A stretch of DNA of 45,423 nt from a virus. Lineage: Duplodnaviria; Heunggongvirae; Uroviricota; Caudoviricetes. Position 1 is the first letter of the stretch. Each line of letters opens with the position of its first letter. The notes under the pieces are model-generated. The model saw nothing but the letters and a program-made list of their open reading frames with translations. It was not told the origin of the DNA and searched no databases. The stretch lies in IMG/VR virus record IMGVR_UViG_2563366980_000004, one strand, 5' to 3'. Positions 1,976 to 44,290 of the stretch are shown piece by piece. The position numbers and the translations under genes are program-made.

Positions 1976-2971
1976 TCACTTTTGTTTTAGCTTTATAATT
2001 TCTGATATCATAGTTGTTAGCTTTGAATCGGAAAGATTCTGCAGTCTATCTTTCTCAATAGAAACTGTAGTTTGTCCCTTTTCTAATATGAAATTTCTTT
2101 CTGTTTTCATTAAAAGCATTGCCAACTCTTTTATCATGTCTTCGTTCTTGAATTCTTGAGCATATTTTAGAGACATGACTTTCATCTCAATATTTGTGAT
2201 TTCATTCTGAAAATATTTGATTTCGTCAAACCCATTTTTATAGAGGCGTAGAAAAAAATAAGCAAACAATTCAACGACTATTACAAATGATAATTTAGGA
2301 AGGTGATGAATAAAAAATCCCACCCCATCCACAATGTCTGGCGCGCTGTAAAGAAAGTAAGCAAGAGATAATATCCCTGTCAACGCAATTATTGTTCCGA
2401 TTGCAAGGTTAAGCCCACCTCGTCGATTGAGTCTGTCTATTTCAGACTCTAATCTTAGAACCATATCAGTATGGAGTTTATGTAAGCTGTAGCTCTTCTT
2501 AAAATCAGATATATCGCTTTTTAGGCTGTTATCTGCCAGAAGTATTGTGTTTCCAATTATTCTCTTTTTTGCATCGGATATTAACTTCTCCCTTTCACTC
2601 TCTGTTATTTCAATGGAAACTCCGGAAGATGTTCTATTTTCAATTTCGCTCAATTTTTTATTTAGCTTAACTATTTCTTTGTGAAAAATATATCTCGTGT
2701 TTTCAATATCTCTACCACCAATTCCTTTGTTTAAATAAGAAGTCATTATTGCGACAAAAGAACCAACAAAAACTAGGGCAGTTGCTGTAAATAAAATAAA
2801 CTCTTTCTTCTCGTTTATTAAATTTACTATTGATGATGATTCCAGTTGAATGTCTGAAAGCGAAGTTTTAAGCACAAAATTCATCACAGGTGAAACCATG
2901 ATTATGGCAACAACTATAATAAATCCATATTTTTTTATAATGTAAATAAGAAGGCCAAATAAATCTTTCAT
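1976..2971 (-). CDS. Hypothetical integral membrane protein with four predicted TM helices and coiled-coil segments (AT-rich moron)
   Basis: 338-aa ORF (TTG at 2992; first ATG at 2971); hydrophobic segments at roughly residues 15-37, 66-87, 195-217 and 232-250 separated by K/E-rich heptad-like regions; markedly AT-rich relative to flanking phage genes; no family recognised. Confidence 0.7.
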   Translation of the reverse strand: MKDLFGLLIYIIKKYGFIIVVAIIMVSPVMNFVLKTSLSDIQLESSSIVNLINEKKEFILFTATALVFVGSFVAIMTSYLNKGIGGRDIENTRYIFHKEIVKLNKKLSEIENRTSSGVSIEITESEREKLISDAKKRIIGNTILLADNSLKSDISDFKKSYSLHKLHTDMVLRLESEIDRLNRRGGLNLAIGTIIALTGILSLAYFLYSAPDIVDGVGFFIHHLPKLSFVIVVELFAYFFLRLYKNGFDEIKYFQNEITNIEMKVMSLKYAQEFKNEDMIKELAMLLMKTERNFILEKGQTTVSIEKDRLQNLSDSKLTTMISEIIKLKQK

Positions 2972-3344
2972 TTTATCTTTTACCTGAAACAAATTTTTAT
3001 TAAAGTAACTTAAAAAATGATTGATTGCAAGATTTACTATTGCTGTTCATTTTAAATTACTATACCCCCCTATGCATACATATAATCCCATAGGGGAGAA
3101 GTTTATTAGTTAGTTAAGTTGAAGGCTATACCTACAATCTAATTCCCCTCCAACCTAACATGCACAAGCGTCAACCTATCGGTAGTGATAATTTTATGAG
3201 GATACGTATAAACAAGATTCTGAGTTGCTCCTATTCATTAAGACAATACATTTTGTAACTTCTGCTTTTGGCTCAGGGTGGGGTGTGAGATTAGGTTTGG
3301 CTCTGTGCCATAGATGTGTCAGTTCACATCTGAGCTAATACACA

Positions 3345-6069: not shown

Positions 6070-6894
6070 TCAGGCGGTGAAAGTACCAATAAAGGTTTCT
6101 ACTTTGCTGTCCTTGAATTTCTCAACAAGCAGATCACGAAATTCGTTAGCCATTTCCTCCTGCACTGCTTCCAGCTGAATAATGCGCAGAACCAGTACAG
6201 GACGATCGCCAGTGAGAATGCTGAGGCGTAATTTAAACGGACGTTCTTTCAGGCCTTCAAACGGAACGCATTTAAATTCAAATGCCACTGGCATAATGTC
6301 TTTGGTTTTCGCTTCGACAGACTCCATCAGGGAGCGTTTGCCGCTGAAGTCATTGTCTTCAAAATCAGCGGTCTGGTTTGCTTCAATCGTGATTTTACGG
6401 ACTGCCGCAGCTGCTTTTGTTGCCTGAATAGCGTCACCATTAGCATCAAAGCCCACAAGGTAGTCGGCCCAGTCTTCAATCCATTCTGCCAGTGACTTCT
6501 GGGAGTTACGCTCGCCATTAACAGACAACAGAGCAGAGAACGGTGCTGTCTTTTTCAGTTTGAGAGTGGCGGTGTTATCTGCGTGACCTGGTTCATCAAT
6601 AGTACCCAGATTAAGCACACTGACAGCACGCATATTATCAGCATCGATAAAGCAGCGGGTGCCTTCATCTGCAAGATCTTTAGAATAACGGGTAAAGTCA
6701 TCGATGCTGGCAGTGGAAAGCGCACCACGGAAACGGAAGCGATTTAAATTAAATTTTTCCAGATCATGAATGCGGAAATTCTCAGGCAATGCCACAGCAT
6801 CGGCACCAATCTTACTGATAATTTCATTAACACCCTGAGCAGAAATAAGGGCATGGATTTGATTAATTGCGGTTGCGTCTAAGTTCTGAGACAT
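6070..6894 (-). CDS. DUF2303 family phage protein (YfdQ-like)
   Basis: 274 aa, same length and general sequence character as E. coli prophage YfdQ; conserved early-left position. Confidence 0.75.
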
Positions 6895-8044: not shown

Positions 8045-8737
8045 TTAATTGTGTCGCTTAAGGGTTTGTGACTGGCTGATTAAGACCTTTCCAAAGACCA
8101 TAAACCGGTGTTCATTTTCGCTGGTAATTCCCCATTCACGGTAAATCTGGTTATCAGAAATCACCAGTAGTTTGTCAGGTATCATTTGCAGTCGTTTGAC
8201 ATAAATTTTATCATCAAAACCAAATACATAGATACCATCTCCATCAAACTGATTGATACTGACATCAACGAAGATGAGATCTCCTGGCTCAATGGTTGGA
8301 CACATACTGTCCCCACGAACGTTGATAACTTTAATGTGATTGGCTGGCCGTCCGCCAAACATCGATACAGCATTATCAGTTCTGTATTCAATGGCATGAA
8401 TCACATCAATGACATCACCGCCCTGGATAAGGCCATTTCCCGCACTGGCACTGACATCCAGCATTTCAATACGGAATACATCCTTCACCTGCGCAACATC
8501 CTCACTAATACTGTTTTTACATACAGTATTACTTTTGAAGTCTGAGGTAAAGAGATCAGCAATATCAACACCTAAGCTCCTGGCAATATTACTCAGGGCT
8601 TGTTCAGTGAATTGTTTCTGCTTACCTGTTTCCAGGCGTGAGATATTCGCCGCATCCACTCCTATTGCTTCAGCGAGATCGGCGATTTTCATGTTCTTCG
8701 CCTGGCGAAGTTGTCTGACTCGGTTTCCTATGTTCAT
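8045..8737 (-). CDS. cI: CI-type prophage repressor (HTH_XRE + S24 LexA-like peptidase domain)
   Basis: 230 aa; N-terminal HTH (LRQAKNMKIADLAEAIGVDAANISRLETGK) and C-terminal S24 signature (RGDSMCPTIEPGDLIFVD...YVKRL); divergent from the cro-like gene. Confidence 0.9.
   Translation of the reverse strand: MNIGNRVRQLRQAKNMKIADLAEAIGVDAANISRLETGKQKQFTEQALSNIARSLGVDIADLFTSDFKSNTVCKNSISEDVAQVKDVFRIEMLDVSASAGNGLIQGGDVIDVIHAIEYRTDNAVSMFGGRPANHIKVINVRGDSMCPTIEPGDLIFVDVSINQFDGDGIYVFGFDDKIYVKRLQMIPDKLLVISDNQIYREWGITSENEHRFMVFGKVLISQSQTLKRHN
8509..8528. promoter_or_regulatory. Consensus-like SOS (LexA) box inside the cI coding sequence
   Basis: TACTGTTTTTACATACAGTA matches CTGT-N8-ACAG with TA flanks; in the HTH-peptidase linker region of cI. 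Confidence 0.35.
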
Positions 8738-8834: not shown

Positions 8835-9095
8835 ATGCAATCACCATTACGGAATGTGCGTAAGGCGCACGGATTTACTTTGCAGCATGTTGCTGCTGGC
8901 GTTCAGGTCAATCCAGCGACGCTGAGTCGTATTGAAAGACTGGAACAAATTCCATCTATCGATCTTGCAGAACGTCTGGCCAATTTTTTTAAGGGTGAAA
9001 TCAGCGAAATGCAGATTCTTTATCCGGCACGTTTTCAATCTAGCCAAAACCAGAATGGGTTTAAACCACAGGAACAGGAGGTAAGCCGTGGGTAA
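8835..9095 (+). CDS. cro: Cro-like HTH_XRE transcriptional regulator
   Basis: 86 aa; HTH (GFTLQHVAAGVQVNPATLSRIER); first gene of the rightward operon. Confidence 0.8.
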   Translation: MQSPLRNVRKAHGFTLQHVAAGVQVNPATLSRIERLEQIPSIDLAERLANFFKGEISEMQILYPARFQSSQNQNGFKPQEQEVSRG

Positions 9096-9639
9096 TCATC
9101 ACTGGAAAGTGGAAAAACAGCCTGAGTGGTACGTGAAAGCTGTCAGAAAAACTATCGCGGCGTTGCCGGGGGGTTACGCTGAAGCTGCTGAGTGGCTGGA
9201 TGTAACAGAGAACGCTTTATTCAACCGCCTTCGTGCAGATGGCGATCAGATTTTCCCGCTGGGATGGGCAATGATTTTACAGCGTGCTGCTGGCACTCAC
9301 TACATTGCGGATGCTGTCGCACAGTCTGCTGGTGGGGTGTTTGTATCGCTTCCTGAAATTGAGGAAGTAGAGAACGCAGATATAAACCAGCGCCTGCTGG
9401 AAGTCATCGAACAGATCGGGAGTTACTCAAAGCAGATTCGTTCGGCAATCGAAGATGGGGTAGTGGAGCCACACGAGCAGACAGCAATTAATGATGAATT
9501 GTATCTGTCAATTTCGAAGCTCCAGGAGCATGCGGCACTGGTCTACAAAATTTTCTGCGCTCCAGAAAAGAGTGACGCCCGCGAGTGTGCAGCTCCGGGC
9601 GTCGTGGCGTTTTGTGTCTGTGGAGAAACTAACGCATGA
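9088..9639 (+). CDS. CII-like / YdaT-like early regulatory protein
   Basis: 183 aa; GTG start with AGGAGG RBS; position after cro; weak resemblance to CII/YdaT-family proteins (functional call tentative). Confidence 0.6.
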   Translation: MGNHHWKVEKQPEWYVKAVRKTIAALPGGYAEAAEWLDVTENALFNRLRADGDQIFPLGWAMILQRAAGTHYIADAVAQSAGGVFVSLPEIEEVENADINQRLLEVIEQIGSYSKQIRSAIEDGVVEPHEQTAINDELYLSISKLQEHAALVYKIFCAPEKSDARECAAPGVVAFCVCGETNA

Positions 9640-10787
9640 ACAGTTTAACGGCAAATAACCGTTTGTCGCAACAGCTGGTGGTCAGTGTCGCTGCACACCT
9701 GTTGTTACGGCATGAATGCAGATTACCAAATCACCTGGCTGTAAGTAACCACAGAGAACTTTACCTGACTGTGGGGGGCGAGTTGTGCAGGAACTTAACC
9801 GCTGGTTTCGTGACGGAAGAGGACTTTATGTTCATGTTATTCGTTGGGAGCCAGAAACACAGCGCGTTATCTATCTTCGCAAAGACTACCCGCATGAGTG
9901 CTTTAGTCCTTTGTGGAAATTCAGGCGTGATTTTGTTGAGTGTGAAGGACCACCAGCACATTGATTCTGCCATTCCGGGACGTTACACTGTTCAGGCACC
10001 TTATAAAGCGGGTGCCGGGCGTGGAAACCCGGAATTCACCAAAGCGCACAACCGCGCTCTTGCGGTTTTTTTGTGTCATGAGCAGCATTACGCCCAAATT
10101 ATGGTGGGGCGTGCAGGGCCAACTTCGGTTGGGCCGGGTTCTTTGGTGACCGGTATTTCCACCCCTGTACGTCTCACCACCAATAAGGTCGTGGAAAGCC
10201 TTGGTGGTGAGTTATTAAAAATCACCAAAGAGGCTGCCATCATGGCTACGATCCCAACCCTCACTCAACCTGAAATTGCCATCGTTGATGGTCAGGCTGT
10301 TACTTCATCCCTGGCTGTTGCCAACTTCTTCTCCAAACGTCATGACGATGTACTGAAAAAGATCCGCACGCTTGAATGTTCCGCATCATTCACTGCCCGC
10401 AATTTTTCGGTGAGTGATTACACCGATTGCACAGGCCGCAAACTACCTTGCTATCAAATAACCCGCGACGGCTTTGCGTTTCTTGCTATGGGTTTCACGG
10501 GTAAACGTGCTGCCCAGTTCAAAGAGGCATACATCAATGCCTTTAACCAGATGGAGAAACAGCTTTCAAAGCCCGCTGTACCGAGCGACGTTGCACATAA
10601 CGCCAGCGTTCTCTGTTCCTACATTTCATCAATTCATCAGGTCTGGCTGCAGCAGCTTTATCCTATGTTGGCAAAAGCCGAATCTCCGCTGGCTGTTAGC
10701 TTATATGACTATATTAATGATGCTTCGGCGCTGGCCTGCCTCATAAATTTGTCGCTGAACCCTTCAGAGGTAAGGGGGCGCAAATGA
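9636..10787 (+). CDS. Rha-family phage regulatory protein (Rha domain from ATG 10242; status of the upstream 200 codons uncertain)
   Basis: C-terminal 182 aa (MATIPTLTQPEIAIVDGQAVTSSLAVANFFSKRHDDVLKKIR...) matches the Rha domain, with an AAGAGG RBS before 10242; the same frame is stop-free back to an ATGA overlap with the upstream gene but has odd composition and an internal terminator-like hairpin. Confidence 0.5.
   Translation: MNSLTANNRLSQQLVVSVAAHLLLRHECRLPNHLAVSNHRELYLTVGGELCRNLTAGFVTEEDFMFMLFVGSQKHSALSIFAKTTRMSALVLCGNSGVILLSVKDHQHIDSAIPGRYTVQAPYKAGAGRGNPEFTKAHNRALAVFLCHEQHYAQIMVGRAGPTSVGPGSLVTGISTPVRLTTNKVVESLGGELLKITKEAAIMATIPTLTQPEIAIVDGQAVTSSLAVANFFSKRHDDVLKKIRTLECSASFTARNFSVSDYTDCTGRKLPCYQITRDGFAFLAMGFTGKRAAQFKEAYINAFNQMEKQLSKPAVPSDVAHNASVLCSYISSIHQVWLQQLYPMLAKAESPLAVSLYDYINDASALACLINLSLNPSEVRGRK
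10050..10072 (+). terminator. Intrinsic terminator-like hairpin plus T-run (tR1-like)
   Basis: ACCGC-GCTCTT-GCGGT followed by TTTTTTT. Confidence 0.45.
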
Positions 10788-11008
10788 TCCGGAATATTTT
10801 CAAACGTTTTACCAATCAGACTTTCCGTTGTCCTCGTCCGGGTCAGTGGTACACCACGCCTGCAGGGCATGTTCTACGTGTTAGCCTGGTTGACCGTGAA
10901 TGTCAGAAGGTGATTTGTGAACCGCTGGGCCGTAATTACCGCGTCAGTATGCCGCTTATAGCCTTTCGCTCCGGAAAAAACATGAAGCATCTCGGAGGTG
11001 CAGCATGA
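10784..11008 (+). CDS. Hypothetical small phage protein
   Basis: 74 aa; ATGA start/stop overlaps with both neighbours suggest translational coupling. Confidence 0.5.
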   Translation: MIRNIFKRFTNQTFRCPRPGQWYTTPAGHVLRVSLVDRECQKVICEPLGRNYRVSMPLIAFRSGKNMKHLGGAA

Positions 11009-11823
11009 GTATGGAGCTGATGGTTAAAGCGATGAAAATTCGAGTGGGTAATCCATTGCGAAAACTGGTTCTGATCAAGCTGGCTGATAATGCCAGCGAT
11101 CAGGGTGAGTGCTGGCCCAGCTACCAGCATATTGCTGACCAGTGCGAGATTAGCAAACGTTCTGTGATGAATCATATTGCGGCCCTTTGTGAGTCCGGGC
11201 TGGTAAAAAAAGTCACCCGGAAAGGTGAAAAAGGTAACTCAAGTAATATCTATCTCCTTCATCTTGATGGTGCAGGAGATTCACTAGGGGGTAGTGCAAA
11301 TAATTCACTATCTGGTGCAGCAAATTCACCAGGTAGTGCAGGAGTTGCACCAGGGGGTAGTGCAGGAGATTCACCCAGAACCAGTCACTCTTTTGAACCA
11401 GTCAAAGAACCAGTCAATGAACCAATAGCTGTTGGTGCATCTGCTGATGAGTCTGTGCGAGTTCGTTCAAACCGACCGGAATACTCTCCGGAGTTTGAGC
11501 AGGCATGGCTGGCCTATCCCAAACGTGCTGGTGGCAATTCAAAATCTGCAGCCTTCAAAGCCTGGAAAGCCCGTTTGAATGAGGGGGTAAACCCCGAAAC
11601 CATGCTGGAAGGTGTGAAACGCTACGCGGGCTGGGTATCTGCGATGGGTAACAGCGGCACACAATTTGTGAAACAGGCTGTCACGTTCTTTGGTCCGGAT
11701 CGTCATTTCGAAGAATCCTGGGAAGTTCCTGCAGTATCTGCAGCCAGACGCGAGGACCCGTACTTCAAAGCCAGTTACGACAACGTGGACTACAGCCAGA
11801 TCCCGGCAGGATTCAGGGGGTGA
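11005..11823 (+). CDS. Replication initiation protein (O-like, N-terminal HTH; YfdO-like)
   Basis: 272 aa; N-terminal winged-helix-like region, central Gly/Ser/Ala-rich linker encoded by direct DNA repeats, C-terminal domain (EFEQAWLAYPKRAGGNSKSAAFKAWKARL). Confidence 0.7.
   Translation: MSMELMVKAMKIRVGNPLRKLVLIKLADNASDQGECWPSYQHIADQCEISKRSVMNHIAALCESGLVKKVTRKGEKGNSSNIYLLHLDGAGDSLGGSANNSLSGAANSPGSAGVAPGGSAGDSPRTSHSFEPVKEPVNEPIAVGASADESVRVRSNRPEYSPEFEQAWLAYPKRAGGNSKSAAFKAWKARLNEGVNPETMLEGVKRYAGWVSAMGNSGTQFVKQAVTFFGPDRHFEESWEVPAVSAARREDPYFKASYDNVDYSQIPAGFRG
11269..11388. repeat. Iteron-like direct repeats inside the O-like gene (putative ori)
   Basis: GTGCAGGAG(A/T)T, GGTAGTGCA and ATTCAC motifs each recur 3-4 times within about 120 bp. 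Confidence 0.4.
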
Positions 11824-11825
11824 TT

Positions 11826-12314
11826 ATGAGTCTTTTGAATGAAGTTCAGAAATTCATTGAAGCCCATCCGGGGTGTACTTCTGGAGACATTGCGGATGCT
11901 TTTGCTGGTTACTCACGGCAGCGCGTTCTGCAGTCAGCAAGCAAGTTACGTCAGAGTGGGCGTGTGGCTCACCGTTGTGAAGGAGATACACGCAGACATT
12001 TCCCGCGCCTGACTGAGAGAGCGCAGGAGCCGGAACCACAATCTGTTCGTGAAACCAGACCTGTGCGCAATTTCTATGTCGGCACTAACGACCCCCGGGT
12101 GATTTTGTGCCTGACCCGCCTGGCTGAAGAACTGGAGTCCAGGGGCTTATTCCGTCGAGCTGCAACGGTGTGGATGGAGGCATTCCGTGAAAGCCACTCC
12201 CAGCCAGAACGAAACAATTTTCTGGCGCATCGTGAGCGGTGCTTACGGAAAAGCAGCAAGCGCGCTGCATCGGGTGAAGAGTGGTATCTGTCAGGGAATT
12301 ACGTGGGGGCTTAA
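11826..12314 (+). CDS. PerC-family transcriptional regulator-like protein (YfdN-like)
   Basis: Motif LESRGLFRRAATVWMEAF resembles the PerC/Pch signature; ATG 11826 with GGGGGTG RBS; length matches E. coli YfdN (164 aa). Confidence 0.55.
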   Translation: MSLLNEVQKFIEAHPGCTSGDIADAFAGYSRQRVLQSASKLRQSGRVAHRCEGDTRRHFPRLTERAQEPEPQSVRETRPVRNFYVGTNDPRVILCLTRLAEELESRGLFRRAATVWMEAFRESHSQPERNNFLAHRERCLRKSSKRAASGEEWYLSGNYVGA

Positions 12315-12967
12315 TGAGTAATAAATATTGCCAGGCGCTGGTGGAGCTGCGGAACAAACCAGCCCATGAACTGAAGGAAGTGGGCGATCAGTGGCGCACG
12401 CCGGACAACATTTTCTGGGGAATTAACACCCTGTTTGGCCCGTTTGTTCTGGATCTGTTTACTGATGGTGATAACGCCAAATGTGCCGCTTATTACACTG
12501 CGGAAGACAACGCGCTGGCGCATGACTGGTCAGAACGTCTTGCGGAGCTTAAAGGTGCTGCCTTTGGTAATCCCCCGTACAGCCGCGCGAGTCAGCATGA
12601 GGGGCAATACATCACCGGCATGCGTTACATCATGAAACATGCCAGTGCTATGCGTGATAAAGGCGGGCGCTATGTTTTCCTGATCAAAGCTGCCACCAGC
12701 GAAGTTTGGTGGCCGGAAGATGCAGACCATATTGCTTTTATTCGCGGGCGTATTGGTTTTGAACTGCCAGCCTGGTTTATCCCGAAGGACGAGAAGCAGG
12801 TGCCGACAGGCGCTTTCTTCGCTGGTGCTATTGCTGTTTTCGACAAGACCTGGAAGGGACCGGCAATCAGCTACATCGGGCGCGATGAACTTGAGGCATG
12901 TGGTGAGGCCTTTCTGGCGCAGGTTCGCCAGCAGGCGGAAAAACTGGTCAGGGAGATGGCGGCATGA
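12314..12967 (+). CDS. Phage N6-adenine DNA methyltransferase (Dam-like)
   Basis: NPPY catalytic motif (FGNPPYS); start at MSNKYC with TAATG overlap. Confidence 0.85.
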   Translation: MSNKYCQALVELRNKPAHELKEVGDQWRTPDNIFWGINTLFGPFVLDLFTDGDNAKCAAYYTAEDNALAHDWSERLAELKGAAFGNPPYSRASQHEGQYITGMRYIMKHASAMRDKGGRYVFLIKAATSEVWWPEDADHIAFIRGRIGFELPAWFIPKDEKQVPTGAFFAGAIAVFDKTWKGPAISYIGRDELEACGEAFLAQVRQQAEKLVREMAA

Positions 12968-13290
12968 CGACATTAACTCAATGCCAGCAGCAGGTGCTGG
13001 ATATGCTGATTTCTTACCAGAAAGAACGTGGCTTCCCGCCAACCAATCAGGAGGTGGCAACCATGCTGGGATACCGTTCAGTGAATGCAGCGGTGGAGCA
13101 TCTTCGCGCACTGGAGAAAAAAGGCGTCATCACGATAAAGCGTGGCGTGGCCCGGGGGATAACGCTTCATACCGCGGTGAAGGACGACGACAGCGAGGCG
13201 GTCGGGATTATCCGCTCACTGCTTGCCGGTGAGGAAAACGCAAGGCTGCGTGCAACCCACTGGTTACATGAGAGAGGCCTGAAAGTATGA
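12964..13290 (+). CDS. LexA N-terminal DNA-binding domain protein (no S24 peptidase domain)
   Basis: 108 aa; TQCQQQVLDMLISYQKERGFPPTNQEVATMLGYRSVNAAVEHLRALEKKGVI parallels the LexA winged-helix domain; no catalytic Ser/Lys domain follows. Confidence 0.7.
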   Translation: MTTLTQCQQQVLDMLISYQKERGFPPTNQEVATMLGYRSVNAAVEHLRALEKKGVITIKRGVARGITLHTAVKDDDSEAVGIIRSLLAGEENARLRATHWLHERGLKV

Positions 13291-13676
13291 AGCTGATCCT
13301 GCCTTTTCCGCCCAGCGTGAACACGTACTGGCGACACCCCAACAAAGGGGCGTTTGCAGGTAAGAGCCTGATAAGCGCGGCGGGGCGAAAATTCCAGAGC
13401 GCGGCGTGTGCAGCAATAGTTGAGCAGTTACGTCGTCTGCCAAAACCAACGTCGGCACCTGCTTCAGTGGAGATCGTGTTGTTTCCTCCGGATAACCGGA
13501 TCCGCGATCTGGACAACTATAACAAGGCGCTGTTTGACGCCCTGACCCACGCGGGTGTGTGGGAGGACGACAGTCAGGTGAAAAGAATGCTGGTTGAGTG
13601 GGGACCGGTTATCCCGAAAGGGAAGGTCGAGATCACTATCAGTAAGTATGAGAAACCGGCGGGTGCAGCCGCCTGA
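13287..13676 (+). CDS. rusA: RusA Holliday-junction resolvase
   Basis: LPFPPSVNTYWR...DLDNYNKALFDALTHAGVWEDDSQV is the RusA signature. Confidence 0.9.
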   Translation: MKLILPFPPSVNTYWRHPNKGAFAGKSLISAAGRKFQSAACAAIVEQLRRLPKPTSAPASVEIVLFPPDNRIRDLDNYNKALFDALTHAGVWEDDSQVKRMLVEWGPVIPKGKVEITISKYEKPAGAAA

Positions 13677-13695
13677 TTAAGAGGAGAAACGAAGT

Positions 13696-14493
13696 ATGAA
13701 TAATCTGATGGTCATTGATGGTATTGAAGTTCGTCGTGATGCTTATGGTCGTTACAGCCTGAACGATCTTCACAGGGCTGCCGGTTCTCTGGATAAGCAT
13801 AAGCCTGCATTCTGGCTCCGCAATGAGCAAACTGAACATTTAATAAGCGAGTTGCAGATTTGCAACTCGGTCAATATAGAGCCAGTTAACGTTATTCGTG
13901 GCGGAAATAACCAGGGGACGTATGTCTGCAAAGAACTGGTGTATGCCTATGCAATGTGGATAAGCCCGTCATTCCATCTTAAGGTGATCCGTACTTTCGA
14001 TATGGTAACCAGCGTACCGGAAAAATTATCCGGGCAGGCTGCTGACAAGATGCAGGCTGGTGTGATTCTGCTGGACTTTATGCGCCGGGAATTAAATCTG
14101 TCTAACTCTTCAGTGCTTGGTGCCTGTCAGAAACTCCAGGAGGCTGTTGGCTTACCGAATCTGGCACCGCGCTATGCCATTGATGCTCCTGCTGACGCGC
14201 CTGATGGCTCAAGCCGCCCCACGCTGTCACTGAGTGCACTGCTGAAGCAGTATGGTATCCGCCTGACAGCTAATCAGGCATATCACCAGATGGCGAAGCT
14301 GGGGATCGTTGAACAACGTGAACGATACAGCCGTACCGAGATTAATAACATCAAAAAATTCTGGTCGCTGACGGCGAAAGGCTGCATGTTCGGCAAGAAC
14401 ATCACCAGTCCGGCAAATCCGCGCGAGACGCAGCCACACTTCTTCGAATCCCGATTCCCTGAGCTGTTAAAGCTGCTCGATACCGTTCATTGA
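13696..14493 (+). CDS. KilA-N domain protein (antirepressor-like)
   Basis: N-terminal KilA-N-like domain (IDGIEVRRDAYGRYSLNDLHRAAG...KPAFWLRNEQT...AMWISPSFHLKVI). Confidence 0.75.
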   Translation: MNNLMVIDGIEVRRDAYGRYSLNDLHRAAGSLDKHKPAFWLRNEQTEHLISELQICNSVNIEPVNVIRGGNNQGTYVCKELVYAYAMWISPSFHLKVIRTFDMVTSVPEKLSGQAADKMQAGVILLDFMRRELNLSNSSVLGACQKLQEAVGLPNLAPRYAIDAPADAPDGSSRPTLSLSALLKQYGIRLTANQAYHQMAKLGIVEQRERYSRTEINNIKKFWSLTAKGCMFGKNITSPANPRETQPHFFESRFPELLKLLDTVH

Positions 14494-14494
14494 G

Positions 14495-15490
14495 GTGACC
14501 GTGAGAGCACTACTGACCCCTGAAATTGCCCCGCGTATGGGGATCGTATTGTTCAGACCCGGTTCAGAGCTGATGCCCCTGTTTATGCAGGGGCGTGTCC
14601 TGCTGGAGCCTGAGCCGGAACGTTATTCATCTTTCGCCAGTGGTGCCGTTCCGGCGGCATCACAACCGCTGGCGGATGATCCTGCCGTTCGGGCCGTGTT
14701 CCGCAATGAGGCAGTTATTCGTCGTGCGGGTGGCGTGGAATGTCTTGAAAGCTGGTTACTTCGTGAAAAGGGCTGTCAGTGGCCTCATTCCGACTGGCAC
14801 AGCGAGAACATGACCACAATGCGACACGCTCCGGGCGCAATCCGTCTGTGCTGGCACTGCGATAACCTGCTTCGCGATCAGTTCACGGAACGGCTGGAAT
14901 CAATGGCAACGGATAACTGTGCCCGCTGGGTGTTGTCTGTTGTGCGTCGGGATCTCGGTTTTGATGACAGTCACGTTGTGACAATGCCGGAACTGTGCTG
15001 GTGGCTGATTCGTAATGACCTGGCGGATGCCTTACCGGAAAGTGCAGCCCGTAAGGCACTGAGATTACCAAAGCCTGTTGTGCCGTCTGTCACCCGGGAA
15101 AGTGACCTTGTGCCTTCGGTTCCTGCCACCAGCATCATCCAGGATAAAGCGAAAAAGGTGCTGGCGCTGAAAGTGGATCCGGAGTCGCCGGAGTCTTATA
15201 TGTTACGCCCAAAACGTCGCCGCTGGGTTAATGAAAAGTACACGCGCTGGGTTAAGACACAGCCGTGTGCATGTTGTGGAAAGCCCGCTGATGATCCCCA
15301 CCACCTGATAGGTCACGGTCAGGGTGGAATGGGAACAAAAGCGCATGACCTTTTTGTGTTGCCTTTGTGCAGAAAGCATCACGACGAGCTGCATGCGGAT
15401 ACCGTGGCATTTGAAGAGATGTATGGCTCCCAGCTGGAGCTGATATTTCGTTTTATCGATCGTGCGCTGGCAATTGGCGTGCTGGCCTGA
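14495..15490 (+). CDS. DUF968 domain phage protein
   Basis: GTG start; C-terminal Cys/His-rich motif [43 protein letters not shown] typical of DUF968. Confidence 0.7.
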
Positions 15491-15507
15491 TTTTGTGGAG
15501 AAAGTTG

Positions 15508-15873
15508 ATGCGTGATATTCAAATGGTTCTTGAACATTGGGGGGCATGGGTGGCAAATAATCACGAGGATGTCACCTGGTCGTCTATTGCTGCAGGATTT
15601 AAAGGACTAATCCCTTCAAAAGTAAAATCCCGCCCGCAATGTTGTGACGATGATGCGATGATCATTTGTGGGTGCATGGCTCGCTTGAAAAAGAACAACA
15701 GCGATTTGCACGATTTATTAGTGGGTTATTATGTAGGTGGTATGACGTTTATGGCGCTTGCCCGTAAACATGGGCGTTCTGATTGCTGGGTTGGGCGTTT
15801 ATTGCAAAAGGCTGAAGGTGTAGTTGATGGCATGTTAATGATGTTAGAAATTGAGCTAGAGATGGATCGTTAG
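15508..15873 (+). CDS. Q: Antitermination protein Q
   Basis: [34 protein letters not shown]...[20 protein letters not shown] matches enterobacterial prophage Q antiterminators; ATG 15508 with GGAGAAAG RBS. Confidence 0.8.
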
Positions 15874-15957: not shown

Positions 15958-16404
15958 TTAAGGTTTTAATTCATCAAGACGTTGTTGGATAGTGTTTTTG
16001 CTTGCGTTGTCTGTTATAGCCATTTGTTGTACTTGCCCCATTGCCATTTGAGTTTCCATCCACATATCGGCCCACACTTTTGTATCGTTATTAACTTGAG
16101 CGATAGTAAATCTGACTTTTGATACCGGGGTTGTTGAATAGGCATTGCCGATTAACATTTGTCCAAAAACGGCAGAGCCGCCTTCCAGTTCTTTACCACA
16201 TATAACACTGCTGTTATCCGCGTTGTAAATTATCAACCCTCTACTATTGCAGTAATTCACAAGGGCATCTTTGACTTTATCTTTTGTCGTATTTTGATAA
16301 ACCCCCTCAGGTTTTCCTGATTGAGTTTTCTTTATCAATGGTACGGAAGAAGTACAACCTGAAATGATAGTTGCGCTAAGTAATAGTACAGTTATTTTAT
16401 TCAT
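15958..16404 (-). CDS. Hypothetical lipoprotein (AT-rich moron between Q and the late promoter)
   Basis: 148 aa; signal peptide with lipobox (LLLSATIISGC); AT-rich and antisense to the surrounding operon. Confidence 0.75.
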   Translation of the reverse strand: MNKITVLLLSATIISGCTSSVPLIKKTQSGKPEGVYQNTTKDKVKDALVNYCNSRGLIIYNADNSSVICGKELEGGSAVFGQMLIGNAYSTTPVSKVRFTIAQVNNDTKVWADMWMETQMAMGQVQQMAITDNASKNTIQQRLDELKP

Positions 16405-17028: not shown

Positions 17029-18081
17029 ATGAAAAATACTGTAAGAATAAACAGTGTTGATTTAATCAACGCTGATTGCCTGCATTTTATTCAGTCCCTG
17101 CCTGATGATTCCATTGACCTGATTGTTACCGATCCGCCGTACTTCAAGGTGAAACCCAACGGCTGGGACAATCAGTGGAAAGGGGACGAAGATTACCTTA
17201 AGTGGCTGGACCACTGTCTGGCCCAGTTCTGGCGGGTGTTAAAACCTGCCGGAAGCCTTTACCTGTTCTGTGGGCATCGTCTGGCATCTGATATTGAGGT
17301 CATGATGCGTGAACGTTTCAACGTGCTTAACCATATCATCTGGGCGAAGCCGTCCGGACGTTGGAATGGGTGTAATAAAGAAAGTCTGCGCGCATATTTT
17401 CCTGCCACAGAGCGCGTTCTGTTTGCTGAACATTACCAGGGGCCATATCGCGGCAAAAGTGACGGCTATGCGGCAAAAGAAAGGGAACTCAAACAGCACA
17501 TAATGGCACCGCTGATATCGTATTTCAGGGATGCTCGTGCCGAACTGGGTATAACGGCAAAACAAATTGCCGAAGCCACAGGTAAGAAAAATATGGTTTC
17601 CCACTGGTTTGGTGCCAGTCAGTGGCAGTTGCCGAATGAGGCTGACTATCGGAAGTTACAGGCACTGTTTTCCCGTATAGCGGCAGAGAAGTTTCAGGAA
17701 CAACAACTGGAACAACCACACCACCAGCTGGTGGCATCTTATGATTCACTGAATCGCAAATATTCTGAATTGCTGGATGAGTTTAAATCTCTCCGGCGCT
17801 ATTTCTCCGTATCAGTCTCCGTGCCTTATACCGATGTCTGGATGCATAAACCCGTTCAGTTCTACCCGGGTAAACATCCGTGTGAGAAACCGGCGGATAT
17901 GCTCAGGCAAATAATCAATGCCAGTAGTCGACCTGGTGATCTGGTTGCTGATTTTTTTATGGGATCCGGTTCCACAATAAAAGCAGCAATGGCGCTGGGG
18001 CGTCGGGCCTTAGGTGTTGAGCTTGAGTCAGAGCGGTTTAACCAGACAGTGAAAGAGATAAACGAGCTGGTGGGGAAATAA
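17029..18081 (+). CDS. DNA methyltransferase (N6-adenine/N4-cytosine class, DPPY motif)
   Basis: 350 aa; IVTDPPYF catalytic motif near the N-terminus and an AdoMet-binding-like FFMGSGST motif near the C-terminus; no adjacent restriction endonuclease. Confidence 0.85.
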
Positions 18082-43531: not shown

Positions 43532-44290
43532 TTAACATTCTGGATTTTTTATTTCTAAATCAGATAAAGCATTAATTCTTATTTTTTCTAAGGCTTTATC
43601 CATGGCCCCCTTGATTCTGTATCCATAATCATCCGGTTCTTCATATTCCTGTGGGGACGGATTTGTACCAATATTCTCAATCAATTCATTTAAAATAACT
43701 GTTACTTCTTTATTAAGAAGAACTGCTTTAGTTAACATCATCTCTGTTAATGCTGTGAAGGCTAGGCTAAGTTTCTGTTGTAGCTCTTTATTTTTTAATT
43801 TTAGATCTTCATCGTTTAGTGCTTTATCACGGTCTTCGTGAGCCTGTTGTACTTCATCCCAAAACTGCTTTTCTTGTTCTTGATTAAAATATCCTTGATA
43901 ACTATTGGCTACATATGTTGGCATCATGTGAATCTCAATAATTTCAAATTCATTATCAGCCCATTTTTTTATACTAAGTAACTGTGTGTAAATGTACTCA
44001 TACATATCGTACTTTTTTTGCCAGATTTGTTGAGAAATCCACAACTCAGAAGTAATCTTTTTTTCTATATCTTTGATAGTTGTTGTATTTAATGCTAACT
44101 GCTTTCTGAGTATTTCATAGTTAGCGTTGGTAGCAGAAATTTTTGCTTTTTCAGTTATAAAAGAAACAATAAAGTTCACTATGAGAGCTACAATAATAAT
44201 AGCGAAGCTCAACCCCAAAATCTCTGTGGTTGAGAAATTGGATGACTGTAATGCTTTGATAAGTTCAAAAAACTGTTTTTCTGTGAGCAT
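43532..44290 (-). CDS. Hypothetical membrane-anchored coiled-coil protein (AT-rich cargo gene)
   Basis: 252 aa; ATG with AAGG RBS; single N-terminal TM (ILGLSFAIIIVALIVNFIVSFI) followed by an acidic coiled-coil region; AT-rich, antisense to the tail genes. Confidence 0.65.
   Translation of the reverse strand: MLTEKQFFELIKALQSSNFSTTEILGLSFAIIIVALIVNFIVSFITEKAKISATNANYEILRKQLALNTTTIKDIEKKITSELWISQQIWQKKYDMYEYIYTQLLSIKKWADNEFEIIEIHMMPTYVANSYQGYFNQEQEKQFWDEVQQAHEDRDKALNDEDLKLKNKELQQKLSLAFTALTEMMLTKAVLLNKEVTVILNELIENIGTNPSPQEYEEPDDYGYRIKGAMDKALEKIRINALSDLEIKNPEC

Follow-up and report, generated by a model that had tools for sequence, protein, structure and literature searches.

We wondered whether a short gene in the early region of a lambdoid prophage encodes a regulator of the PerC/Pch type and, if so, whether it could give the prophage a hold on the virulence genes of its host. 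The gene occupies positions 11826..12314 on the plus strand of the window, by which we mean the whole stretch of 45,423 nt that was analyzed (IMG/VR virus record IMGVR_UViG_2563366980_000004). The window represents a mEp460/PhiR55_1-like lambdoid prophage with an integrase and a CI repressor (8045..8737), and neither a stx gene nor tRNA genes were found in it. A first-pass annotation of the sequence had read the gene product as a PerC/Pch-type activator by which the prophage could cross-regulate host genes, notably ler and the LEE.

The open reading frame extends from ATG 11826 to TAA 12312-12314. The first-pass annotation had the coordinates right but counted one residue too many: the 489 nt include the stop codon, and both the ORF listing and the sequence give a product of 162 aa instead of 163 aa. 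An in-frame GTG at 11820, 6 nt upstream of the ATG, would yield the 164-aa form that is found in RefSeq/PGAP. This alternative start (11820-11822) overlaps the stop codon TGA (11821-11823) of the preceding initiator gene. We favour ATG 11826 over GTG 11820 as the probable true start, because the N-terminal residues 'MSL' are kept in the alignment of distant relatives and because a Shine-Dalgarno sequence, AGGGGG (11815-11820), precedes the ATG by 5 nt. The putative translation-initiation junction (11815..11828, +) comprises the Shine-Dalgarno sequence, the stop codon of the initiator gene and the ATG (11826-11828).

Sequence comparison identifies the gene as an ortholog of E. coli K-12 yfdN, the two proteins being 95% identical across all 162 residues. 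K-12 yfdN resides in the cryptic prophage CPS-53/KpLE1, where it is flanked by yfdO (initiator) and yfdM (Dam) in the order yfdO-yfdN-yfdM. In K-12 yfdN is intact and both neighbours are pseudogenes, whereas the neighbours are intact in the window; apart from this the two loci show no substantive difference. Amino acid identity to the window protein is 94% for SfV orf40 and 68% for Sb43 of Salmonella phage ST64B, and yfdN is also carried by phages mEp460, SfII and SfIV and by Stx2c and Stx2k phages. PHROG 1324 ('transcriptional activator') matches residues 1-161, that is the full length, with an E-value of 1.8e-77. With this full-length similarity, its two domains and the synteny initiator - yfdN - methyltransferase the protein belongs to the PHROG 1324/YfdN group. 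yfdN DNA was detected in about half of the complete E. coli genomes (2668 of 5426), K-12 included, and is named there by PGAP/RefSeq as 'yfdN: PerC family transcriptional regulator'. yfdN is thus one of the commonest prophage genes of E. coli; the PerC label is already public and the finding as such is ordinary. The literature on YfdN was found to consist of a deletion in a reporter strain, hits in over-expression screens and predicted network membership, and the high-throughput mentions (a glycogen screen, a filamentation screen and a predicted interactome) yield no attributable function.

YfdN is a basic two-domain protein, the product of a delayed-early gene of mEp460/SfV-type lambdoid prophages. 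A HMMER search of 1.84 billion representative proteins returned 98 matches, with about 25 full-length clusters of 140-165 aa and identities down to 26%. The alignment of these relatives displays four conserved elements, namely an N-terminal domain with an NPG turn, a linker that varies in both length and sequence, the PerC core and a LAGxYxG motif. The AlphaFold2 (AF2) model has a mean pLDDT of 84, and values above 90 were obtained for aa 3-60 as well as for aa 90-148. The N-terminal domain (aa 3-60; 11832..12005, +) is predicted to adopt a winged-helix fold of the MarR/BlaI/ArsR-like type with three helices and a beta-hairpin wing. It has a pI of 9.4 and conserved Arg residues in helix 3 and in the wing. 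A linker that is predicted to be disordered (aa 61-89; 12006..12092, +), with a pLDDT of about 50-55 and no secondary structure, leads to the PerC-core domain (aa 90-148; 12093..12269, +). This domain is modelled as a three-helix bundle, has a pI of 11.1 and contains the motif LESRGLFRRAATVWMEAF. The C-terminal tail (aa 149-162; 12270..12311, +) reads W-Y-L-S-G-N-Y-V-G in the window and corresponds to the consensus LAGxYxG. It is floppy in the model; G157 and G161 are nearly invariant in 33 relatives with identities down to 23%, and the dN/dS of the tail is 0.07. Its low pLDDT suggests that the tail may be an interaction peptide.

The complete reading frame is under purifying selection, with a dN/dS of 0.12 over 55 distinct alleles. 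That it might be a chance ORF or a decaying remnant rather than a functional gene has next to no probability, given this ratio, the preservation of both domains in the full-length clusters mentioned above and the confident AF2 models. The conservation data refute a non-functional ORF.

The similarity of the motif (residues 103-120; nt 12132-12185) to PerC, which was the starting point of the first-pass annotation, goes far beyond chance. A search with the Pfam PerC profile (PF06069), the check that had been proposed at that time, gave a match over residues 98-149 with an E-value of 1.1e-8 and 35.6 bits, above the gathering cutoff of 22.6. A Kosakonia relative with 28% identity likewise scored above this cutoff (26 bits). 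For profile-profile comparison we used EPEC PerC from pMAR2 and PchA, PchD and PchE from O157 Sakai. A profile of the C-terminal region of 30 YfdN relatives aligned with the PerC/PchA/PchD/PchE profile in hhalign over 57 columns (probability 99.1%, E 9e-19), covering columns 5-61 of the 95 columns of the PerC/Pch template. The window protein shares 22-32% identity with these four proteins over the common region, and eleven positions are invariant among all five (A100, L103, E104, G107, R110, R111, A112, W116, R129, R136 and C139). These data indicate, at the level of sequence, that the C-terminal part of YfdN and the PerC/Pch core are truly homologous. The homology is confined to this core. 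The match to PF06069 covers only profile positions 5-56 of 90, and YfdN is not a full-length PerC protein, as the C-terminal block …IKxAV…MG…FRNY is absent. Searches by tblastn with the PerC core against plasmids and with EPEC PerC against phages gave weak matches only (E 0.05-5), which consistently fell on yfdN orthologs and on genes with a PerC-family annotation. Judged from alignments and predicted structure, the YfdN subfamily is a fusion of a winged helix and a PerC core without the second half of PerC, which we regard as a small new point.

The PerC core has the look of a TPR-like three-helix unit that weakly resembles ANR/Aar, which is a second small new point. The ANR proteins are anti-activators of small size whose binding partners are AraC-type regulators and H-NS. 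The NCBIfam ANR profile (NF033650) matched residues 97-129 of the window protein with an E-value of 1.3e-3 and 18.5 bits, below the cutoff of 32, and YfdN, with 162 aa and two domains, is not itself an ANR protein. The same profile weakly matched 9 of 11 PerC-family (PerC/Pch/YfdN-core) proteins, all of them below the cutoff (best E 4.9e-5), and the matches cover nearly all of its 54 positions. Like the PerC core, the ANR proteins Aar, Rnr and Cnr are small, helical and connected with regulation that involves H-NS, to which Aar binds directly (PMC5570504). Unlike YfdN, they are shorter than 70 aa and lack a DNA-binding domain. Our literature search for papers linking Aar/ANR to PerC found none. 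The profile matches suggest that PerC and ANR may be distant relatives, which we take as a lead and not as an established homology.

yfdN lies inside the early-right operon that reaches from the CI/Cro region to the antiterminator Q. Pfam assignments of the neighbours, from a CII-like gene through Q, bear out the location in the replication/nin region that the first-pass annotation had given. The order on the plus strand is CII-like, Ash/Rha, orf74, HTH_36/DnaD_N initiator, yfdN, Dam, LexA-DNA-binding-domain protein, RusA, KilA-N, DUF968 and Q. Directly upstream of yfdN, a replication initiator or replisome-organizer-like protein is encoded (11005..11823, +; HTH_36 and DnaD_N by Pfam; yfdO in K-12). 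Directly downstream follows a Dam-type N6-adenine DNA methyltransferase (12314..12967, +; PF05869, E 1e-45; yfdM in K-12). Coupled codons are found on both sides: the initiator stop and the yfdN start form TGAttATG, and the Dam ATG overlaps the yfdN stop in TAATG. No promoter-like or terminator-like site was found in the plus-strand flanks of yfdN. A LexA-DNA-binding-domain-only protein of 108 aa (12964..13290, +; PF01726, E 3e-19) and a RusA resolvase (13287..13676, +; Pfam) come next, and the cassette order through these two genes is also present in Kosakonia, Citrobacter and IMG/VR relatives.

Two further early genes lie ahead of the initiator. One of them (9636..10787, +) encodes a protein of 383 aa with an Ash (PF10554) and a Rha (PF09669) domain. 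Next comes an ORF of 74 aa (10784..11008) that could not be annotated, and start and stop codons overlap throughout. This 74-aa ORF was tested as a hidden YfdN relative and is not one.

To see how stable this neighbourhood is, we compared related loci from genomes and IMG/VR, 147 of which had adequate flanks. The scan of genome contigs gave 8 loci, a first scan of viral contigs gave near-identical E. coli alleles, and the alignment A8 scan gave diversity. Closely related E. coli dominate the sample, whose effective size is the 12 clusters sharing less than 70% identity. The gene directly upstream belonged to the HTH_36 / DnaD_N / Phg_2220_C initiator family in all 147 loci, and in 142 of them the longest-ORF start of the yfdN-like gene overlaps the initiator stop by 4 nt. 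A DNA methyltransferase was located directly downstream in 128 of the 147 loci, usually sharing an overlapping stop/start with the yfdN-like gene. This slot is filled from four families, namely Dam (PF05869), D12 N6-A (PF02086), MT-A70 (PF05063) and C5 (PF00145), and in addition by C5+D12 fusions. Its occupants differ across the window (12314..12967) and loci L096, L099, L101, L109, L113, L014, L114 and L163. In the 19 loci without a methyltransferase the LexA-like gene follows the yfdN-like gene directly, and RusA is next in most such downstream arrangements. The invariant coupling to the initiator beside a swappable methyltransferase slot is the third small new point.

The LexA-DNA-binding-domain-only protein lacks the S24 peptidase domain and is found between the methyltransferase slot and RusA in divergent relatives as well. 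Its counterparts lie at 6262..6600 in L014, 4447..4806 in L009, 4479..4799 in L011 and 3950..4324 in L166. During lytic growth it could serve as an SOS-box binder that cannot be cleaved.

How does YfdN compare with family members whose function is known? PerC of EPEC, from the perABC operon of pEAF, and the group 1 Pch proteins PchA/B/C of EHEC, which counteract H-NS silencing and so activate LEE1/ler, share with it the core of about 55 residues (LExxGxxRRAAxxW...R......R..C; 29-30% identity), and PerC/Pch and YfdN are alike in being basic, helical and encoded on mobile elements. However, PerC and Pch consist of a single domain and have 89-104 aa, whereas YfdN has in addition a winged helix of 60 aa, a linker and the LAGxYxG tail, which is absent from PerC and Pch. 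The genetic settings differ too. perC follows perA and perB on plasmid pMAR2, in an operon with the AraC-type PerA, while pchA stands by itself, on the opposite strand, in the late part of prophage Sp4 and is probably a separately transcribed moron. In contrast, yfdN is part of an early replication operon and occupies neither of these separate accessory positions. PchD, PchE and EcCIMP1_025, the last encoded on a PICI, have the PerC core in common with YfdN (22-32% identity). With a single domain and about 90 aa, they keep the C-terminal half of PerC, and they do not activate LEE. The pchE gene (L003, 31772..32044) follows primase and SSB genes in a replication-type module of the satellite-like Sp7.

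PerC-family genes recur beside DNA-metabolism genes on other mobile elements. Besides pchE, this was seen for pchD (L005, 9877..10146), which comes after ibrA/ibrB-like genes, with a PAPS-reductase-like ibrA and a ParB-like gene ahead of it. It was also seen for a homolog on a Citrobacter plasmid (L179, 4923..5258), which follows a gene of the PAPS-reductase family.

We consider it unlikely that YfdN activates ler and the LEE or otherwise lets the prophage cross-regulate its host in the manner of PerC and Pch. The idea can draw on a real homology to the PerC/Pch core, with all residues that are invariant among PerC and PchA/D/E present, and on close yfdN alleles in the Stx2c and Stx2k phages of STEC. 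Moreover, Uhlich et al. (PMC5931665) took this possibility seriously and removed yfdN, in their words 'the K12 unique PerC homologue', from the strain that carried their ler::lacZ reporter. However, YfdN has only the first ~55 residues of PerC and carries an extra winged-helix domain. Membership in the PerC family does not by itself predict LEE activation, because PchD and PchE affect ler/LEE little (PMC5931665, PMC6265319) and the PICI-encoded EcCIMP1_025 represses LEE1 in C. rodentium (PMC11773190). PchE is known to repress csgD/curli and to induce flagella (PMC6265319, PMC7369912). In K-12 W3110, which carries yfdN, the EHEC LEE1 promoter is silent at whatever level this strain natively expresses yfdN, and pchA raises its activity 110-fold (PMC4764244). 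As yfdN is found in about half of the complete E. coli genomes, K-12 among them, it is tied to no LEE-positive pathotype, and the window itself is without stx. Finally, unlike pchA, yfdN is located in a CI-repressed early operon and is translationally coupled to the initiator gene, so its expression in the lysogen is not expected. Of the interpretation offered by the first-pass annotation the assignment to the PerC family thus stands, but nothing we found supports an activator of ler/LEE or of host genes, and LEE activation by YfdN is unsupported. 'PerC family' is best understood as a domain label and not as a functional prediction: PerC and PchABC are the only members shown to activate LEE, the others are neutral or repressive, and the presence of yfdN says nothing on virulence regulation in the host of the window.

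YfdN appears to be a protein of the lytic cycle, encoded in an early operon, and not a virulence moron, because its position after the initiator gene is invariant, the codons overlap and a methyltransferase usually comes next. As the most likely role, to which we give about an even chance, we propose that YfdN is an accessory regulator of the phage life cycle, or an anti-silencer, which acts mainly on phage DNA and is no dedicated ler/LEE activator. YfdN would be made together with the replication proteins only upon prophage induction or infection and would be repressed by CI in the lysogen. Its basic winged helix would bind DNA, and the PerC core would act as it does in Pch, either by loosening H-NS-type silencing or by modulating transcription via protein contacts. 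This action would be directed mainly at the phage's own DNA during lytic growth. The proposal of an anti-silencer draws on PchA, which binds in the region of the LEE1 promoter, reduces the occupancy of this region by H-NS and activates LEE1 in a manner dependent on H-NS/StpA/Hha (PMC4764244), and on the Aar-like (ANR) profile match, as Aar binds H-NS. It is weakened by unpublished work of the same authors, in which PchA did not co-precipitate with H-NS (PMC4764244). In addition, the half of PerC/Pch that is missing from YfdN could be the part needed for activity, and the invariant coupling to the initiator fits a role in replication at least equally well.

Such a role is the main alternative, and we regard it as possible but doubtful. 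Here YfdN would be a replication accessory protein and the obligate partner of the HTH_36/DnaD_N initiator, acting at the phage origin, for instance as a lambda-P-like recruiter of host DnaB/DnaC, with the winged helix and the three-helix core serving as modules for contacts with protein or DNA. This would account for the invariance of the initiator-yfdN coupling, and no helicase or helicase-loader gene was found in the replication module (9088..15873, +). In Stx2_95 (L176, 2497..5691), moreover, the yfdN position after an initiator whose C-terminal region is 72% identical is taken by a DnaC-like (IstB_IS21) and a DnaB-like gene. Lambda P and the DnaC-like loaders are therefore positional analogues of YfdN, encoded right after the initiator. 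However, in sequence YfdN resembles neither lambda P nor DnaC, DnaB or any known loader, and it has no detectable similarity in fold to these loaders. It also lacks an ATPase domain and hence the AAA+ hallmark of the DnaC type, which sets it apart from the helicase loaders. PerC and Pch, the sole homologs whose function has been tested, regulate transcription. Vibrio phage D290 carries a 48%-identical initiator with neither a YfdN-like gene nor a loader after it, and this type of initiator can therefore work without a YfdN-like partner. The intact state of K-12 yfdN despite the pseudogenes yfdO and yfdM also argues against a strictly initiator-dependent function. Making YfdN a controller of the downstream cassette instead, as a C-protein-like regulator or specificity partner of this enzyme or of the LexA-like protein, appears very unlikely to us. 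The methyltransferase does follow directly in 128 of the 147 loci, mostly with overlapping stop/start codons, and the authors of the SfV sequence placed a dam promoter within orf40, the ortholog of yfdN. Yet the 19 loci in which the LexA-like gene takes its place make such a role less likely. Fusion artefacts, RusA-YfdN among them, show a variable downstream neighbour, and the swaps among unrelated methyltransferases look like a cassette hot-spot and not like a specific partnership.

A bolder version of the replication model is one that we hold only tentatively and would not expect to be right. It takes YfdN as the obligate partner of the initiator and the PerC core as ancestrally a replication or nucleoid-remodelling module of mobile elements, from which PerC and PchABC would have derived later by truncation and co-option. 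The core would then act at the origin or clear H-NS from incoming or induced phage DNA. If this were true, the initiator-yfdN coupling together with the swappable methyltransferase slot would make up a functional cassette of lambdoid replication modules that has not been described before. If the coupling is functional, it could open a first way into the mechanism of the PerC family, which has been obscure for more than 20 years.

Several minor observations were made along the way. A 108-aa ORF after the initiator of Vibrio phage D290 was tested as a hidden relative of YfdN and is not one. An internal dam promoter like the one annotated in SfV was not recovered in the window, as no sigma-70-like site inside the ORF passed our scan. 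Three ORFs of the window had no Pfam match at E-values up to 1e-3: 1976..2992 (-, 337 aa), 15958..16404 (-, 147 aa) and 43532..44290 (-, 251 aa). The second of these lies on the opposite strand just after Q (15493..15873), in a moron-like position. Downstream of Q, in the late-region slot that holds stx in Stx phages, we also found a second DNA methylase (17029..18081, +; PF01555 N6_N4_Mtase, E 4e-42), so that, together with the Dam-type enzyme, the prophage encodes two orphan methyltransferases. Finally, the RefSeq entries of mEp460 (NC_019716.1) and cdtI (NC_009514.1) label the ortholog of the Dam-type enzyme 'phosphoadenosine phosphosulfate reductase'. According to the GenBank versions and to Pfam the same protein is a DNA N6-adenine methyltransferase, and the label looks like an annotation inconsistency.
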